NCBI GenBank assembly: GCA_964467045.1
Contig: CAYXOH010000001.1
Coordinates: 4,850 to 55,010 of the forward strand
Length of the DNA stretch: 50,161 bases
DNA from: an uncultured Candidatus Saccharibacteria bacterium
Lineage (GTDB): Bacteria > Patescibacteriota > Minisyncoccia > Minisyncoccales > RBG-13-42-11
Direction of reading: 5' to 3'
The notes under the pieces were generated by a model. That model saw only the letters and a program-made list of their open reading frames with translations. It was not told the origin of the DNA and did no database searches. A program made the translations under genes and the position numbers. Below, in pieces: positions 27,207 through 49,988 of the stretch (within the stretch, counting starts at the first letter, position 1; each line of letters begins with the position of its first letter).

Positions 27207-27284
27207 ATGAAAATATTAGCTGAAAACCCCGCACCAAAACTTTCGGTTTGGTACGGGGCAGGCAAAAAAGCTTATGGATTATGA
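27207..27284 (+). CDS. Candidate 25-codon upstream ORF (MKILAENPAPKLSVWYGAGKKAYGL) overlapping the smpB start (ATGA)
   Basis: Its first seven codons encode the same MKILAEN as smpB but differ at six synonymous positions. Its stop TGA (27282-27284) overlaps the smpB ATG (27281-27283). Confidence 0.3.
   Translation: MKILAENPAPKLSVWYGAGKKAYGL
27227..27258 (+). promoter_or_regulatory. Imperfect 14-bp-stem hairpin in the smpB leader / uORF
   Basis: CCCCGCACCAAAAC-tttc-GGTTTGGTACGGGG (12 of 14 positions pair). Confidence 0.5.
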
Positions 27285-44552: not shown

Positions 44553-45690
44553 AAACTTGAGAAATGGCCCCCAAGATAAAAATTGCCATTAAAAAGTATA
44601 ATAAAACAGAGGGAATTTTAAAATTATACTCTGGTACTCTATCTCCCAACTTTTTTGCTTGTTTAAAAACTAGAATGATGATAATTCCCTCAATCACCCC
44701 AACAATTGTCCCAATAAAACTAATTGTTCCAATAAAGCTGCGAAAGCCAACTAAAAATAAGATTAAAGGCAGGCCGCAGGTAAAAAGAACAGCTGAAAGC
44801 TTTGAAAAACCGTAATCATAAATTAGGGTATTCCTTAAATAAAGGCCAATTATCAAAAATGAATCAGCTAAGGTTATAACAGCTGCCAGTGCGCCAAAGA
44901 GGATAATTTTATGGCCTAAAAAAGGGATTAATCCCTGGAGAGTTTCAGGGGAGGTTCCCTCCCCGCTTACTCCTACCATAACCAAAGCAAAAAGTACGTA
45001 AAGAATAGCAATGATAAAAAATGTAGCGATTATAATCTTCTTAAGCTTCTTCCTTTCTTCGGAAGTTCTTAAGACTTCTATTATTTCTGGCACGGCCGAA
45101 AAACCTATTAAGGAGAACATAATTACTCCATAGGGCAGAAAGATATTGGGGGGGTTTACTAAAGTATAATTATCAAGATTAATCTTGGGAAAAGCAAAGC
45201 AAAAAACTATAAATATAATTATAAAGAAAAGGAAATTGGTTACAATCTCAGTCGGAGCAATTAATTTTGTTCCTTTGAAGATAAAATAAGATAAAGATGC
45301 TAAAAAAAATAAACTTAGATAAAAAGAGGGCAGGTCTAAAATGGGAGAAAAAACAATCTTTAAGAAATCTCCGCCAATAATAATATAGGCTAGCAGTGCT
45401 CCCGTTAAACCAACTATAACTGAGATAGTGATAAAAACCCTACCCTGCTTTCCTAAGTATTTTTGAGCAAAACCAGGCAGACGATGTTTTTCTTTGGTTC
45501 TTAAAACTATTTCTCCAAAAAATAAATGAACGCAAAGTGCTGTTCCTCCTAAAATTAAAAGATAAAAAAAGCTAGGTATTAACCCGCTTTTAGCTACTAC
45601 ATAAGGAATTCCGAAAATTCCTGCCCCGACAATAGTCCCAATTAAAATAGATAAAGCAAAGAAAAGGTTTTTCTTGTGCCCAAACATCAC
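44542..45690 (-). CDS. Amino-acid permease (aromatic/Trp-Tyr permease-like, ~11 TM)
   Basis: 382 aa, polytopic, with an N-terminal GTIVGAGIFGIP motif. Confidence 0.72.
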   Translation of the reverse strand: MMFGHKKNLFFALSILIGTIVGAGIFGIPYVVAKSGLIPSFFYLLILGGTALCVHLFFGEIVLRTKEKHRLPGFAQKYLGKQGRVFITISVIVGLTGALLAYIIIGGDFLKIVFSPILDLPSFYLSLFFLASLSYFIFKGTKLIAPTEIVTNFLFFIIIFIVFCFAFPKINLDNYTLVNPPNIFLPYGVIMFSLIGFSAVPEIIEVLRTSEERKKLKKIIIATFFIIAILYVLFALVMVGVSGEGTSPETLQGLIPFLGHKIILFGALAAVITLADSFLIIGLYLRNTLIYDYGFSKLSAVLFTCGLPLILFLVGFRSFIGTISFIGTIVGVIEGIIIILVFKQAKKLGDRVPEYNFKIPSVLLYFLMAIFILGAISQVFAF

Positions 45691-45728
45691 CTTGAAGATC
45701 CAGAGAACAATTAATTAAAACTTTAAAC

Positions 45729-45998
45729 TTACTCTACTTTATAAACCTTGTAGCCATCCCTTACTTTCTGAGCAGTTTTTAAACCCACAGAATTTCCCTT
45801 CTTGGCTTCTTCTATTTTTTTGTGTTCTATTTCCATTGAATCAATCGTTTGAGTAAAATCAGTTTCTCCACCAATAATCCTAATAGTCTCCCCCACTTTA
45901 AGCTTTCCAGAAAGCTCAATGACAGCTACGCCAATGTTGCCGAAATAATGGGTGATTTTTCCTATTAATTTTCCTTCTTCAAGCTTTTCTTCTGGCAT
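45729..45998 (-). CDS. Small EF-Tu-domain-2-like beta-barrel protein (translation elongation factor-like protein)
   Basis: 89 aa. ..IGKITHYFGNIGVAVIELSGKLKVGETIRI.G.. resembles stand-alone EF-Tu domain II proteins. Confidence 0.65.
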   Translation of the reverse strand: MPEEKLEEGKLIGKITHYFGNIGVAVIELSGKLKVGETIRIIGGETDFTQTIDSMEIEHKKIEEAKKGNSVGLKTAQKVRDGYKVYKVE

Positions 45999-46085
45999 AA
46001 ATTTAACGTTTTAGTTTGTCAAAAGCGACCTTTAAATAGTTTAATTCTATAAATATATTGTAGCACAATCTCCTCAAATGAAAAG

Positions 46086-46110
46086 CAGGAAGAAAATCTT
46101 CCTGTTTTTT
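46086..46110. terminator. Bidirectional-looking hairpin terminator downstream of the tRNA locus
   Basis: AAAAG-CAGGAAG-aaaat-CTTCCTG-TTTTTT. On the minus strand it follows the tRNA genes by about 200 nt. Confidence 0.5.
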
Positions 46111-46308
46111 CATAAGGGGGAATAATCCCCGATAAAATTGACTTTTCACTAAGTCTGGCTGGACATTGACCAGGCAGCTGCTGCAGCCTCCTTTATCAAA
46201 GATTATTTGTCCTTAGAGTATAAAACTCGCACCCCCTCGTTTCTAAGTTTAAATTATAATCAGGAGCTGTGTCAACTGCGTTTTATCCCCATTTTATTCA
46301 CAATAATG

Positions 46309-46466
46309 TGTCCCTGGGCTGATTCGAACAGCCAATCTTCCCGCCCCTTTTTGATGTCCCTACTCCGAATCGAACGGAGATCCCAACCTCCGGAGGGTTG
46401 TACTTTATCCGTTAAGCTATAGGGACTTAAAAAGGCGGGACGTTTTATCCATTAAACCACAGGGAC
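46309..46466 (-). tRNA. Arg-type tRNA-like gene whose anticodon loop is replaced by an extended helix enclosing a complete tRNA gene
   Basis: The 5' part (46466-46427) is GTCCCTG TG GTTT AATGGATA AAAC G TCCCG CCTTTTTAA. The 3' part (46354-46309) is TCAAAAAGGGG CGGGA AGATT GGCTG TTCGAAT CAGCC CAGGGAC A. The acceptor, D, anticodon and T stems all pair; no canonical anticodon loop can be formed. Confidence 0.55.
46355..46426 (-). tRNA. tRNA-Arg (anticodon CCG)
   Basis: GTCCCTA TA GCTT AACGGATA AAGT A CAACC CTCCGGA GGTTG GGAT CTCCG TTCGATT CGGAG TAGGGAC A. This is a full cloverleaf with U33, G37 and discriminator A. CCA is not encoded. Confidence 0.92.
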
Positions 46467-46467
46467 G

Positions 46468-47181
46468 TTATTTCTCAGCCACCAGATAAATATTACTTTC
46501 CTTTGTTTTGGTTTTTTTTAGGATTCCAATTTTTTTAATTTTAAGGCCTGCTTTTTGGATTATTTTTCTCAATCCACTAGCCGTAAAACAATGAATATAT
46601 CTTAGAGTAATATCCTGCCATAAAACAAAAAAATCACCAAAATCTAATTTTGCTTTTCCAAAAATCTTCAGGAGTTGATATTTAAAGAAGGCTTTAACTC
46701 TCTTGTATTCACCTATTAAAATCATTCGAAAAGGATTCAGGTTCCAAACGGTTAAAATAAGAACGCCTCCGGGTTTTAAAATCCTCCTTGTTTCTTTTAA
46801 TAATTGGAGCTGAAGTTCTTCGGAAGGAAGATGATGGATAACAGCAAAGCTAAAAACTTTATCAAAGGAATTTTCAGGAAAAGGTAAGCTTAAAGCATCA
46901 GCAATCCTAAGGTCAACTTTGGGATATTTTTTTCTGGCGATCTCAATCATCTTTTCAGAATTATCCACTCCCACATATTCAATCTTTTTCTGAAAAACTT
47001 CAGAAAATCTTCCATTACCGCAACCCAAATCTAAAACTTTGTCACCTGGGGTGATATACTGTAAAAGTAGACTCTTTTGTTCCTCTGGAATATATTCTCT
47101 AGTCTTTGAAAAATCTTCAGCAATCTGGTTATAATCTTTCCGAGTTTTTTCTAATAAATATTTTGCGTATTCTTTATCCAT
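46468..47181 (-). CDS. Class I SAM-dependent methyltransferase, Trm9/ALKBH8-MT-like
   Basis: Start set at MDKEYAKYLLEKT (ATG 47181). IAEDFSKTR, VLDLGCGNGRF and FSFAVIHHLPSEE...LLKETRRILKPGG.LILTVWN match my memory of the Trm9 signature blocks (AVIHH, L.PGG, VW). Confidence 0.75.
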   Translation of the reverse strand: MDKEYAKYLLEKTRKDYNQIAEDFSKTREYIPEEQKSLLLQYITPGDKVLDLGCGNGRFSEVFQKKIEYVGVDNSEKMIEIARKKYPKVDLRIADALSLPFPENSFDKVFSFAVIHHLPSEELQLQLLKETRRILKPGGVLILTVWNLNPFRMILIGEYKRVKAFFKYQLLKIFGKAKLDFGDFFVLWQDITLRYIHCFTASGLRKIIQKAGLKIKKIGILKKTKTKESNIYLVAEK

Positions 47182-48781
47182 GGATGTCCAAAAAATCATT
47201 ATCCAAGAATTAATCAAAACCAAAGCAAAGACTTTGGAGGATTTAGCTAAGGTTAAAAGATGGGCGGCTAAAAAATATAAAACCCCTTGCTCCAGTAATA
47301 TTATTCTACTAAAAACTTACCACGAATTAGTCAAAAATAAAAAGGTAAAAAAATCCTCCATTATTGAAACCTTACTCAGAACCAGACCTATCCGTTCTCT
47401 TTCCGGCATTGTTAATATTTCAGTCTTAACTAAACCTTATCCTTGTCCTGGTAAATGTTTATATTGCCCCCTGGAAAAAGGCATTCCTAAAAGTTATTTA
47501 TCAGGAGAACCTGCAGTAGAAAGGGCTAAAAAACTAAATTACAATCCCTATTTACAAGTTGAAAAGAGAATTGAAATGCTGGAAGCTACAGGCCACCCCA
47601 CAGATAAAATTGAATTAAGAATTGTTGGTGGAACTTGGTCCTGTTACCCAAAAGATTACCAGAGTCAATTTATAAAGAAATGTTTTGATGCTTGTGATAA
47701 GAAGATTGGTAAAACTCTGAAGGAATCTCAAAGATTGAATGAAAAAGCAAAACACAGAATAATTGGTTTATCAATTGAAACAAGGCCAGATTTTATTAAT
47801 CCAACCGAAATCAAAAGGTTAAGGAATTTTGGCGTAACCATGGTAGAGTTGGGAGTTCAATCTATTTATGATGATGTTTTGAAATTAAATTTAAGAGGCC
47901 ACGGAGTCAAAAGAACAATTGTAGCCACAAAACTTTTAAAAGATACCGGTTTCAAAATCCTTTACCAAATGATGCCAAACCTTCCGGGTTCTAATTTAAA
48001 GGTCGCTGAGACAAAGTCTCATCTTCCGCCTCGCGCTACTTTGCAGCGCTCAGCAAGAGATGAAAAAATGTTTGAAGAATTATTTTCCAATCCTAATTTT
48101 CAGCCAGATTTATTAAAGATTTATCCTTGCGCCTTAGTAAAAGAAGCTCCTTTATATAAATGGTGGAAACAAGGAAAATACAAACCTTATACAGAAAAAC
48201 AATTAATAAGCTTAATAAAATCTATTAAACAGAAAATTCCTTATTATGTAAGAATTCAAAGAATAAGTAGAGATATTCCTTCCCCGGCCATTGTTGCAGG
48301 GGGTGCCAAAGTTTCTAACTTGCGTCAGATTCTACTTGGGAATATGAAAAGAGAGGGTTGGCAATGTAAATGTATCAGATGCAGAGAAGTAAAAGAAAAT
48401 TACGATCGGAAGGAAAAGGTTTACCTCTTTAGAATAAATTACATAGCTTCTGATGGAAAAGAAATATTCCTAAGTTTTGAAAATAAAAACAGAACAAAGA
48501 TTTTCAGTCTGCTCCGTCTTCGCATCACCTCTCAAAAAACAGCCATCATCAGAGAACTCCACACTTACGGCCAGCTCCAGCCAATAGCAGAGAAAGTTTC
48601 TGTTATTTCTCCTCAACACAAAGGATTAGGTAAAAGACTAATGAAAGAAGCAGAAAAAATAACCAAAAAAGAATTTGGTTTGAATAAAATTGCCGTAATT
48701 TCCGGCGTCGGAGCAAGAAATTATTATCGTAAACTAGGCTACAAACTAAAAAACACTTATATGACGAAAGTCCCTCTTTAA
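47180..48781 (+). CDS. elp3: Elp3-type radical-SAM / GNAT tRNA uridine(34) carboxymethyl-modification enzyme, with an element-derived insertion
   Basis: 533 aa. Radical-SAM cluster CPGKCLYCP, MPNLPGS, LKIYPC and C-terminal GNAT QHKGLGKRLMKEAE. The extra peptide LKVAETKSHLPPRATLQRSAR is encoded by the repeat. Confidence 0.9.
   Translation: MDVQKIIIQELIKTKAKTLEDLAKVKRWAAKKYKTPCSSNIILLKTYHELVKNKKVKKSSIIETLLRTRPIRSLSGIVNISVLTKPYPCPGKCLYCPLEKGIPKSYLSGEPAVERAKKLNYNPYLQVEKRIEMLEATGHPTDKIELRIVGGTWSCYPKDYQSQFIKKCFDACDKKIGKTLKESQRLNEKAKHRIIGLSIETRPDFINPTEIKRLRNFGVTMVELGVQSIYDDVLKLNLRGHGVKRTIVATKLLKDTGFKILYQMMPNLPGSNLKVAETKSHLPPRATLQRSARDEKMFEELFSNPNFQPDLLKIYPCALVKEAPLYKWWKQGKYKPYTEKQLISLIKSIKQKIPYYVRIQRISRDIPSPAIVAGGAKVSNLRQILLGNMKREGWQCKCIRCREVKENYDRKEKVYLFRINYIASDGKEIFLSFENKNRTKIFSLLRLRITSQKTAIIRELHTYGQLQPIAEKVSVISPQHKGLGKRLMKEAEKITKKEFGLNKIAVISGVGARNYYRKLGYKLKNTYMTKVPL
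48001..48057 (+). repeat. Two-hairpin element copy, in frame and sense inside elp3
   Basis: GGTCGCTGAGACAAAGTCTCATCTTCCGCCTCGCGCTACTTTGCAGCGCTCAGCAAG, with terminal inverted repeat GCTGAG/CTCAGC. Confidence 0.85.
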
Positions 48782-48794
48782 GATTTTCTTAATT

Positions 48795-49988
48795 TTAGAA
48801 AATCTCAGGCCGATAGCCGTCTAGACAGCGCAACCTTTTTTGAGCCTTAACTTTCTCTGAAATAGAAATGTTGCTTTTTTGAATTCCTTTTTCTAAAATT
48901 TCCAAAGTTTTATCATAGGTTTCTCTATCAACAGGAAAAGGAGTGCCGTCTTTCCCTCCAACGGAAAAAGTGTAACGAGCCGGGTCTTGATAAGAGGGTT
49001 TTGCTCCGTAAATTATTTCTGAAACCAAAGAAAGGGCTCTGATTGTCCTCGGACCTATACCCTTCAATGAAAGAAATTGTTCAAAGTTTTTTGGCTCTTC
49101 GGCCCGGGCTCCTGAAATTGTTTTCTCTAACCTTTTCAAATCAAATTTTTCTTCGACAACAGGATGCCAGTAGAATTCTTTGTCGTATAATTTCATTGTT
49201 GTCAGATTTTTTGATTTTTTAACGCGATGAAGTTTTCCGCTCTCGGGTTTGCCTTCATCTTTACTTTCGCTCGGCTTCGCCTCGCTTAGTGTTTGAATTA
49301 AATTTAAATCTTTTAAGAATTGCTTTGGCTCTTCTTTAACTAAACCGAGAGAAATTTCTCTGTTATTGTTGCTTTTTTTTGCGGTTAAATTAAGAGGTTT
49401 TGCCCTAGCTCCGGATATAATGCCTGAATGAGGTTCCTCGATAAAATCTTTAGCAGCGGAAGATAGCCAATGATAACGGCGAGCGGTCTGATTTTGCGTA
49501 TTCATTCCCTGCTGAACAACTACCCAGTTACCCGATTTAGTAAATAAAAAATTATGCTGATAAATCTGGTATTTATCCTGAATAAGAGCAGAATCAACTT
49601 TAGCGGCCATTTTTGAAGCGTAAATTAATTTCGAGGCGAAAGGAAATTGCCTAGAAATTCCGTAAGCAGTAATTTCTTCCGGGGTTTTTCTTGATTCTCT
49701 TTTGCCACCGCAAACATAAACTCCTAACTGGTCTTGTATTTCAAAAAGTCCGGCTTTCAGTGCCCCCAGGGTTGTCACCGTCAGGCCCGAGGAATTCCAA
49801 TCAAAACCCATAACACACCCCAAGCTCTGGAACCAAACCGGATCTGACAATCTCTTTAAAAATTCTTCCGGACCGAATTCTTCAACAATTGCCAGAGCAA
49901 CACCTCGGCCAAGCCTTTTCATTCTTTCAAAAAGCCATCTCGGACACCGCCCATAATCAAGAGGTACTGTAGCAATTCCTGTTCTCAT
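48795..49988 (-). CDS. DUF763 domain protein (HhH-containing), with an element-derived insertion
   Basis: 397 aa. ..PLDYGRCPRWLFERM.., LSDPVWFQSLGCVMGFDWNSSGLT and LKGIGPRTIRAL (HhH). The family call is from memory. Confidence 0.75.
   Translation of the reverse strand: MRTGIATVPLDYGRCPRWLFERMKRLGRGVALAIVEEFGPEEFLKRLSDPVWFQSLGCVMGFDWNSSGLTVTTLGALKAGLFEIQDQLGVYVCGGKRESRKTPEEITAYGISRQFPFASKLIYASKMAAKVDSALIQDKYQIYQHNFLFTKSGNWVVVQQGMNTQNQTARRYHWLSSAAKDFIEEPHSGIISGARAKPLNLTAKKSNNNREISLGLVKEEPKQFLKDLNLIQTLSEAKPSESKDEGKPESGKLHRVKKSKNLTTMKLYDKEFYWHPVVEEKFDLKRLEKTISGARAEEPKNFEQFLSLKGIGPRTIRALSLVSEIIYGAKPSYQDPARYTFSVGGKDGTPFPVDRETYDKTLEILEKGIQKSNISISEKVKAQKRLRCLDGYRPEIF
49223..49286 (+). repeat. Two-hairpin element copy inside the DUF763 gene, antisense to the gene, frame preserved
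   Basis: CGCGATGAAG-(20 nt)-CTTCATCTTTACTTTCGCTCGGCTTCGCCTCGCT. It encodes (antisense) LSEAKPSESKDEGKPESGKLHR. Confidence 0.75.

Follow-up and report, generated by a model that had tools for sequence, protein, structure and literature searches.

In a 50,161-nt stretch of DNA from an uncultured Candidatus Saccharibacteria bacterium (the whole of which is referred to as the window), the 158 nt of the minus strand that run from position 46466 to 46309 comprise a complete tRNA-Arg(CCG) gene flanked by complementary GC-rich arms, beyond which lie two parts of a second tRNA. The feature is probably a tRNA-Arg(CCG) gene that has been replaced by another, with relics of the older copy remaining on both sides, and one case of a nested replacement that recurs at this locus. 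The comparison of related loci shows, on sequence grounds, that the same kind of event has taken place independently at least 9-10 times in related Patescibacteria, stacking up to three levels.

The nest directly follows a methyltransferase gene, and the comparison set was built around this neighbor: 40 methyltransferase homologues were aligned, 80 loci from genomes and 80 from metagenomes were collected around relatives, and individual contigs of the closest relatives were added. The loci are numbered from L001 onward, 171 in all, sampling having been confined to the locus adjoining the methyltransferase gene. Identities between inner and outer copies, between L103 and L124, and between L108 and L124 are manual counts from the sequences.

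A tRNA-Arg(CCG) gene between two parts of another

ARAGORN and Rfam each recognize a single tRNA in the window, the inner tRNA-Arg(CCG) at positions 46355-46426 of the minus strand, which aligns with model RF00005 over its full length (1-71) at 59.5 bits, the gathering score being 29. Its anticodon loop, CUCCGGA, is of 7 nt with U33 and a purine at position 37, as in a canonical tRNA, and the gene is presumed to be functional.

The outer 5' piece (46441-46466, minus strand) consists of the acceptor strand GTCCCTG, the dinucleotide TG, the D arm GTTT-AATGGATA-AAAC, and G26; the outer 3' piece (46309-46338, minus strand) holds the variable region AGATT, the T arm GGCTG-TTCGAAT-CAGCC, the acceptor strand CAGGGAC, and the discriminator A. 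Both would stem from an older tRNA-Arg(CCG), of which they represent positions 1-26 and 44-73, respectively. Neither ARAGORN nor Rfam RF00005 calls a tRNA in these pieces. A profile hidden Markov model (HMM) built from 58 distinct tRNA-Arg(CCG) genes and employed with nhmmer matches the 5' piece at model positions 1-27 (E = 2.5e-3) and the 3' piece at positions 45-73 (E = 0.1), and the corresponding pieces of the sister locus L001 with E = 1.7e-4 and 0.14, respectively. Model positions 28-44, that is, the entire anticodon arm, are absent from the outer pieces. The insert measures 100 nt, 72 of them tRNA; its 5' arm (46427-46440, minus strand; TCCCGCCTTTTT followed by the linker AA) pairs with its 3' arm (46339-46354, minus strand; the linker TC followed by AAAAAGGGGCGGGA, with a GG bulge) in a helix of the minimum free energy (MFE) fold. 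The organism has a low GC content, 35%, and its protein relatives, which resemble Nealsonbacteria/Paceibacteria, place it among the Patescibacteria.

The 40 nt upstream and the 46 nt downstream of the inner tRNA fold back on each other, and the MFE of the 158-nt segment, -62.8 kcal/mol (z = -4.1), was reached by none of 200 shuffles. This fold contains the outer 7-bp acceptor stem, the outer D arm, a helix of 12 bp that is interrupted by a GG bulge and leads to the inner acceptor stem, and the outer T arm. The duplex between the flanks, calculated on L086, whose sequence is that of the window, amounts to -21.0 kcal/mol against a shuffled mean of -10.3. The initial annotation, made from the sequence alone, had described a complete tRNA-Arg(CCG) inside a second Arg-type tRNA; the sequence is exactly as given there, the inner gene is called by both programs, and the outer acceptor stem, D arm, T arm and long helix are reproduced by the MFE fold.

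When the outer halves are joined in silico, ARAGORN calls a tRNA at nearly every junction tried, the calls resting on the body alone. Because of these calls and the HMM matches, the outer body is to be read as tRNA-derived, with a good cloverleaf. Enumeration of the loops that the flanks could form when closed by TCCCG/CGGGA yields only one of 9 nt, CCUUUUUAA, which ARAGORN regards as Lys(UUU)-like, and no 7-nt anticodon loop with U33 and a purine at position 37 can be obtained from the window flanks, as had been claimed earlier. Since no anticodon loop remains, the outer pieces are unable to decode; with an intact homologue elsewhere (L130) and the essential anticodon arm lost, they bear the marks of a pseudogene or relic. 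The pairing TCCCG/CGGGA, taken in the initial annotation for a 5-bp anticodon stem, does exist; its identity, however, appears to be a different one, in that these five pairs more plausibly form the outermost part of the palindromic arms of the insert, because the same CCCCGCC.../...GGCGGGG arms bracket inner tRNAs in T and D loops elsewhere.

Recurrence in related Patescibacteria

The position of a tRNA-Arg(CCG) gene directly downstream of the same methyltransferase is widely conserved, with about 58 distinct loci. In about 46 of them the tRNA comes straight after the methyltransferase gene and there is no outer copy, and about 12 are nested or bear relics. Every inner gene is a tRNA-Arg(CCG), and all lie in the same orientation as the outer copy. 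The closest relative with usable DNA (L001-L004), whose methyltransferase is 83% identical, has the same nest as the window. The other nests, which are of different kinds, are in distant loci. In L108 the outer copy has kept the complete body of a tRNA-Arg(CCG), its CUCCGGA loop included; the arms and the inner tRNA stand in the T loop, and the MFE fold is a perfect cloverleaf within a cloverleaf. L103 is a nest of three levels, and L124 has the remnants of three.

The remaining nests differ in their junctions and in the state of the outer copy. The junction is in the T loop in L126, where the outer D/anticodon region is scrambled, in the D loop in L117 and L128, and in the anticodon loop in L123, and only a 5' relic is left in L113 and L109, the 3' part having been lost. 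Taken together, the junctions are concentrated in three places, namely the D loop (after G18-G19 or A20), the anticodon arm or loop, and the T loop (at about 57/58); at level 2 of L103 and level 1 of L124 the whole span from the D loop to the T loop has been replaced, and small deletions of the target are common.

Among relatives with methyltransferases 63-69% identical, L166, L167 and L171 are un-nested and L168-L170 have no tRNA. In L168 (1875-2100), as at the starts of L169 and L170, a direct repeat of about 100 nt, from GAACCTGCCTCGCTGACGCTCGGCAGAACCTTGATTCGCTA, takes the place of the tRNA after the methyltransferase. In L166 (1990-2060), a tandem repeat of about 36 nt, GGACGCCACCCACCACCCTTCAAGGTTGTGGA, directly follows the tRNA and ends in the DnaA-box-like TGTGGATAA. 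The tRNA-Arg(CCG) of L120 (916-988) pairs a 5' acceptor strand GCCCTCG with a 3' strand CGGGGAC, leaving a C2.A71 mismatch, and looks like a chimera, as if two allele families had recombined.

The fate of the outer pieces

Between the window and L001, the outer body agrees at 53/56 positions, the arms at 24/30 (12/16 in the 3' arm) and the inner tRNA at 71/72, and identity amounts to 79% at third codon positions of the methyltransferase and 73.5% in the downstream spacer. Purifying selection on the outer body, considered in view of the 53/56 against the 79%, was withdrawn given a recently exchanged block. In a sliding comparison over window positions 44600-49900, a block of about 3.2 kb (~48800-45550) that spans the Elp3, methyltransferase and tRNA genes, a leader and an 89-aa open reading frame (ORF) is 83-97% identical to L001, as opposed to 55-70% in its flanks, the DUF763 and amino-acid permease genes. 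This profile indicates what would be a recent recombination or transfer, and the inference of selection fails because the exchanged block leaves no local neutral expectation.

The acceptor, D and T arms of the outer body, which are intact in the window and almost intact in L001, evoke the idea of a natural tRNA scaffold, retained for the benefit of the transcript. Cleavage of the outer ends by RNase P and by 3' processing would detach the unit from the methyltransferase mRNA and make it more stable, and the inner tRNA would then be offered to RNase P/Z for another round of cleavage. In keeping with such a role, the outer copy starts 1 nt past the stop codon and has no separate promoter, and the outer tRNAs of L103 and L108 are complete save for the T loop. 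Several observations nonetheless make the scaffold, which the initial annotation had put forward as its first hypothesis, unlikely. The 53/56 identity is not interpretable inside a recently exchanged block. In L001 the connecting helix has decayed (flank duplex of -12.6 kcal/mol as against -21.0 in the window; fold z = -0.9, with no long helix), and the outer T stem carries a C.A mismatch. About 46 of the 58 loci do without any outer copy. RNase P reads the tRNA elbow, which insertions in the D and T loops would break. As for the other outer copies, the 5' relics of the orthologous nests L109 and L117 share about 70% of their positions, where third codon positions are 61% identical, and the 3' side of L109 is gone; older outer copies are thus found truncated or scrambled, as would be expected of relics.

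The inner tRNA of L001 (3260-3331; also in L002-L004) is itself unusual in its T loop, TTTGATT, where C56U changes a nearly invariant base.

Origin of the two alleles

An uninterrupted version of the outer gene does exist: L130 has an intact tRNA-Arg(CCG) that agrees with the outer halves in the window at 51/56 positions (23/26 in the 5' part, 28/30 in the 3' part). The inner gene is closest to other alleles, agreeing with the un-nested tRNA of L101 at 69/72 positions and with the inner tRNA of L108 at 67/72. The two copies in the window share 19/26 positions in the 5' part, and their T stems are unrelated (CTCCG/CGGAG in the inner copy, GGCTG/CAGCC in the outer). The same pattern is seen in L103, where the outer allele is approximately 92% identical to the intact inner allele of L124 and approximately 70% to its own inner one; the inner allele of L103 is found un-nested in L167, overlapping the methyltransferase stop. 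A before/after pair is provided by L102, which has a plain tRNA, and the nested L123 (methyltransferases 81% identical), in which the outer 3' 40 nt are identical to the L102 tRNA and located downstream of the inserted tRNA. The 5' part of L123 also contains a 38-nt empty GC-armed hairpin and an AT-rich insert.

The outer copy would thus be the older resident gene and the inner one a newcomer. Since inner and outer copies are of the same isoacceptor, are co-oriented and have similar D loops, the inner gene could in principle have arisen from the resident gene copied into itself, followed by divergence. Such a local duplication is, however, highly improbable: each half has a closer relative elsewhere than its nest partner, in the window as in L103, the T stems are unrelated, and the arms are left unexplained. 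Replacement by a foreign allele is the better reading of these comparisons. The proposal in the initial annotation that an Arg tRNA paralogue had been destroyed by insertion of another tRNA is accordingly supported by the alleles of L130 and L101; it did not foresee the recurrence, the levels or the palindromic arms.

Splicing and assembly artefact as unlikely readings

The location of the junctions in the D, anticodon and T loops resembles that of non-canonical archaeal tRNA introns, the GC-rich complementary arms recall the helices that join split tRNA halves in Nanoarchaeum (PMC4090602, PMC3978253), and the outer copies of L103 and L108 retain an intact CCG anticodon arm. One could therefore imagine, as the initial annotation did, an intron-like arrangement in which the arms and inner tRNA are removed from the RNA and the outer exons joined, so that one gene gives two tRNAs. 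This is barely credible: the window has no anticodon loop to restore and no junction that yields U33 and a purine at position 37, T-loop junctions would not restore T54-Psi55-C56, the host is a bacterium (with a tmRNA gene in the window), and the decayed outer copies argue against function. A bulge-helix-bulge, whose absence had been noted before, was sought by reading the junctions of the window, L103, L108 and L126 directly; each is a continuous helix whose unpaired nucleotides face each other as an internal loop, and not two 3-nt bulges staggered by 4 bp. A group I intron or other known RNA was likewise rejected, Rfam yielding no match but tRNA at E values up to 10 in the window region and up to 0.01 in 12 nested loci, and nothing like a tRNA splicing endonuclease or ligase is encoded among the seven neighboring genes.

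That the junctions are errors of sequencing or assembly, a concern in that all the sequence data are metagenome assemblies, can be set aside almost entirely, given that the window sequence recurs identically in a JGI contig (L086), that the L001-L004 version is identical in four independent assemblies (ENA, JGI, Logan), and that differing nests occur in many unrelated assemblies.

The arms and other GC-armed palindromes

The arms that bracket the inner tRNAs are of 10-16 bp, start with CCCCGC and end with GCGGGG, in the manner of terminal inverted repeats, and are often preceded by YYYG and followed by TGAA (Y, pyrimidine). Their inner parts differ between events yet stay complementary. Complementary arms beside the inner tRNA are confined to nested loci, where the flank duplex ranges from -14 to -34.5 kcal/mol, as compared with -2 to -13 in about 50 un-nested loci; the value for L001, which is nested, is the -12.6 kcal/mol given above. 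In the window the arms are TCCCGCCTTTTTAA / TCAAAAAGGGGCGGGA, and almost the same pair, CCCCGCCCTTTAT / TCAAAAAGGGCGGGG, stands in L103 where the junction is in the T loop. The units occur in varied contexts, one arm type being found at an anticodon-arm junction (window) as well as at a T-loop junction (L103), and both empty (L102) and filled (L123) states are found at orthologous sites.

Small GC-armed palindromes with arms from CCCCG and with content other than tRNA are also present in these genomes, several of them flanked by direct repeats of 4-5 nt (TTGA, TTTAT, TGAA). They include L135:3594-3674, whose arm CCCCGCACCTTTT resembles that of L108, as well as L001:806-886, L006:3613-3740, L098:4833-4965, L108:3574-3639, L109:504-562, and positions 27227-27258 of the window. 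None has a match in Rfam, and they look like either a family of the type of miniature inverted-repeat transposable elements (MITEs) or terminator hairpins. Because GC-armed palindromes occur with flanking repeats of 4-5 nt, a family of small palindromic elements is probably present and mobile.

Two other origins of the arms were discarded. They are not relics of the acceptor and T stems of an intermediate tRNA, in that no putative T stem has the G53-C61 closing pair; nor do they represent a genome-wide uptake signal or a motif of the repetitive extragenic palindromic (REP) kind, CCCCGYRC (R, purine) being observed twice in the window where 0.94 occurrences are expected.

A proposed course of replacement

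In the course of events proposed here, a resident tRNA-Arg(CCG), of the allele that is intact in L130, lay right after the methyltransferase gene, and its anticodon arm (~27/28-43) was swapped for a cassette made up of a GC-rich arm, a complete tRNA-Arg(CCG) of a different allele, and the complementary arm. The inner gene would be the working tRNA, transcribed with the methyltransferase mRNA and freed by RNase P and 3' processing, and the outer pieces would be relics that decay or are deleted over time; they may persist partly owing to the tight slot between the methyltransferase stop and the next promoter. The cassette would arrive as a defined DNA unit with palindromic ends, being either a small palindromic MITE-like element with a tRNA as its load or a fragment taken up where hairpin loops had broken. 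The best guess is that an arm-tRNA-arm unit from the small-palindrome family, or a fragment bounded by half-hairpins, becomes inserted at the loops of the resident tRNA gene.

It is tentatively suggested that the cassette is of a new type, protein-less and palindrome-armed, with a complete tRNA as its sole cargo, which enters the D, anticodon or T loop of a gene for the same isoacceptor and takes over its function. If so, the process would amount to serial horizontal tRNA replacement with 'Russian-doll' relics, a form of homing without a homing endonuclease gene, in which enzymes that recognize the structure of folded single-stranded DNA or RNA might do the cutting or joining; the notion is possible but doubtful at present.

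Several points weigh against the replacement reading as a whole. No insertion enzyme, donor copy, free armed cassette, circle, tandem donor or phage copy was found, and no cognate transposase is seen in the neighborhood of the nest in the window. There is no clear target-site duplication for the tRNA-bearing units, at most a possible 2-nt YG, and classical transposition is unproven. Arm sequences diverge between events past the first 6 nt. One arm type is found with two cargo alleles that differ by approximately 21% (window and L103), and one cargo allele with two arm types (window and L108); the idea of 'one element, one cargo' does not fit because arm types and cargo alleles mix. L108 and L124 share an arm and outer remnant at 32/37 positions with methyltransferases just 59% identical, so that horizontal transfer of nests or selection on remnants is needed. 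Lastly, the closer agreement of the outer body (53/56) than of the arms (24/30) between the window and L001 could reflect constraint on the outer body, although the comparison is confounded by the exchanged block.

Candidate vehicles and donors were also considered and rejected. A phage or viral vector was sought: no viral contig carries the inner tRNA, and 120 out of 120 viral arm-gap-arm matches are devoid of tRNA. A donor in which the tRNA stands beside a G-first hairpin, circular or in tandem and opened within the loop of that hairpin, could account for the YYYG...TGAA ends, yet none was found among the 171 loci. As to integrase-mediated insertion at an attachment (att) site, the 5' and 3' pieces complete each other as portions of a single gene instead of being repeats, no integrase is nearby, and there is no phage copy.

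Comparison with known systems

Two arrangements, one engineered and one natural, resemble the nest. In the engineered tRNA scaffold of Ponchon and Dardel, designed for expressing recombinant RNA, the anticodon stem-loop is reportedly replaced by a helix that bears a cargo RNA. The geometry is the same as in the window; there, however, the chimera is the wanted product, while here the comparisons point to an insertion scar, from which the tRNA cargo must be cut out. The intervening sequences (IVS) of rRNA are extended helices in hairpin loops of 23S and 16S rRNA, sporadic among strains, which are cut by RNase III without re-ligation. They share with the nest the insertion of helices into loops of a structural RNA; unlike the nest, they leave the host RNA functional as fragments and carry no gene, whereas the nest has lost its host tRNA, for which the insert supplies a replacement.

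Mobile DNA and introns provide further points of reference. The eukaryotic Dada transposons also insert at defined positions in tRNA and small nuclear RNA genes (PMC3706591), but they employ a DDE transposase, generate target duplications of 6-7 bp and have multicopy targets, whereas the nest has a single-copy target, no transposase or clear duplication, and a cargo that replaces the function of its target. Bacterial group I introns are likewise intervening sequences in tRNA genes, placed in the anticodon loop, those for Arg included (PMC3984707), but are ribozymes of at least 200 nt that splice and restore the tRNA; the 100-nt insert described here has no ribozyme signature and there is nothing to restore. 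Disrupted tRNA genes of archaea and red algae, among them split and permuted ones, have interruptions at several cloverleaf positions, including the D and T loops, with GC-rich helices that join the halves, and archaeal tRNA introns are thought to have been transposed between positions (PMC4090602, PMC3978253, PMC3728597). In those genes, in contrast to the nest, a bulge-helix-bulge and a splicing endonuclease are involved and the outer tRNA is functional; in the nest a full tRNA makes up the insert between its arms, and the outer copy is non-decoding in the window and decaying in other lineages.

The nearest analogues are the GC-rich palindromic clusters known from AT-rich mitochondrial genomes, and those of Neurospora adjoin tRNA genes, according to a passage in PMC4478555 that cites Yin et al. 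1981. As is the case here, these are short GC-rich palindromes in an AT-rich, reduced genome, sporadic and protein-less. They are regarded as mobile, show conservation of structure more than of sequence, and have very short target repeats (AG in yeast) (PMC4478555). They differ in being self-contained hairpins beside or between genes, whereas the arms here are split around a complete tRNA gene that lies within another gene of the same isoacceptor; that source describes neither nesting nor serial replacement for them, and the present host is a bacterium. None of the systems compared joins a complete tRNA cargo, a same-isoacceptor target and serial nesting. The literature on nested or replaced tRNA genes in candidate-phyla bacteria, covered incompletely, yielded no description, which is an absence of evidence only.

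Genomic setting

The gene immediately upstream of the nest, which serves as the conserved synteny anchor, encodes a class I S-adenosylmethionine (SAM)-dependent methyltransferase (46468-47181, minus strand; Pfam Methyltransf_11/25) that matches the Trm9 structure 5cm2_Z (E = 2.5e-14) among many generic methyltransferases. Its TAA stop occupies 46468-46470, which agrees with the earlier placement of the outer 5' end 1 nt beyond the stop of a Trm9-like gene. A consensus scan detected no promoter-like site between this stop and the tRNA, and the two genes are probably co-transcribed. On the other side, a promoter-like site of the same scan (46246-46275, minus strand; TTGACA, 18 nt, TAAACT) would serve the next transcription unit and marks the 3' limit of the tRNA slot. 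In many related loci TTGACA lies within 0-20 nt of the tRNA 3' end, which often abuts this -35 box of the next promoter. At the 5' side, the methyltransferase frame enters the tRNA by 10 nt in at least 10 loci (L007, L015, L019, L094, L110, L112, L118, L120, L122, L128), stopping at the TAG of tRNA positions 8-10, and in L095, L099 and L152 it runs 15 nt into the tRNA and stops at positions 13-15. The slot holds no spare DNA, given the methyltransferase overlap and the abutting next promoter. In the TAG-overlap loci the methyltransferase stop is the near-universal U8-A9-G10 of the tRNA, a protein-tRNA gene overlap conserved across many lineages.

The methyltransferase gene is divergently paired with a bona fide Elp3 gene (47180-48781, plus strand; TIGR01211, 545 bits), and the pair suggests an archaeal/eukaryote-type (m)cm5U34 pathway in a Patescibacterium. 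Further neighbors of the two encode DUF763, DUF498 and TIGR00375 (EndoQ-like) proteins. Just past the nest, at 46283-46302 of the minus strand, are two DnaA-box-like 9-mers, TGTGAATAA and TGGGGATAA; similar boxes (TGTGGATAA/TGTGGATAT) stand at the equivalent place in L001, L103, L123, L167 and L166, and could indicate that the region is close to an origin or under the control of DnaA.

Beyond the promoter-like site, at about 46000-46245 of the minus strand, lies a conserved and probably structured leader (TTGAGGGGGTGCGAG...CTCTAAGGAC...GAAGGAGG...CCCCCTCA), which is 92% identical to that of L001 and recognizable in loci with 50% methyltransferase identity. It has no match in Rfam and is a candidate for a new riboswitch or leader. 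It precedes the 89-aa ORF, predicted to adopt an EF-Tu domain-2-like fold and whose exact protein is not on record, and in L166 and L171 it precedes an LDcluster4 gene.

Implications

For annotation, the nests call for caution: tRNA finders report the inner gene alone and miss the relics, and a split tRNA or one with an intron could wrongly be seen in the outer pieces. The nest is also the counterpart in nature of the engineered tRNA scaffold. Should the replacement reading be true, it would point to unrecognized small palindromic elements in Patescibacteria that are able to carry a gene, and to a structure-directed insertion process aimed at tRNA loops. A single-copy tRNA gene would then be exchangeable between lineages even in very small genomes, the new copy being placed inside the old so that the function is never lost, and the relics left behind would serve to date and order the replacement events.

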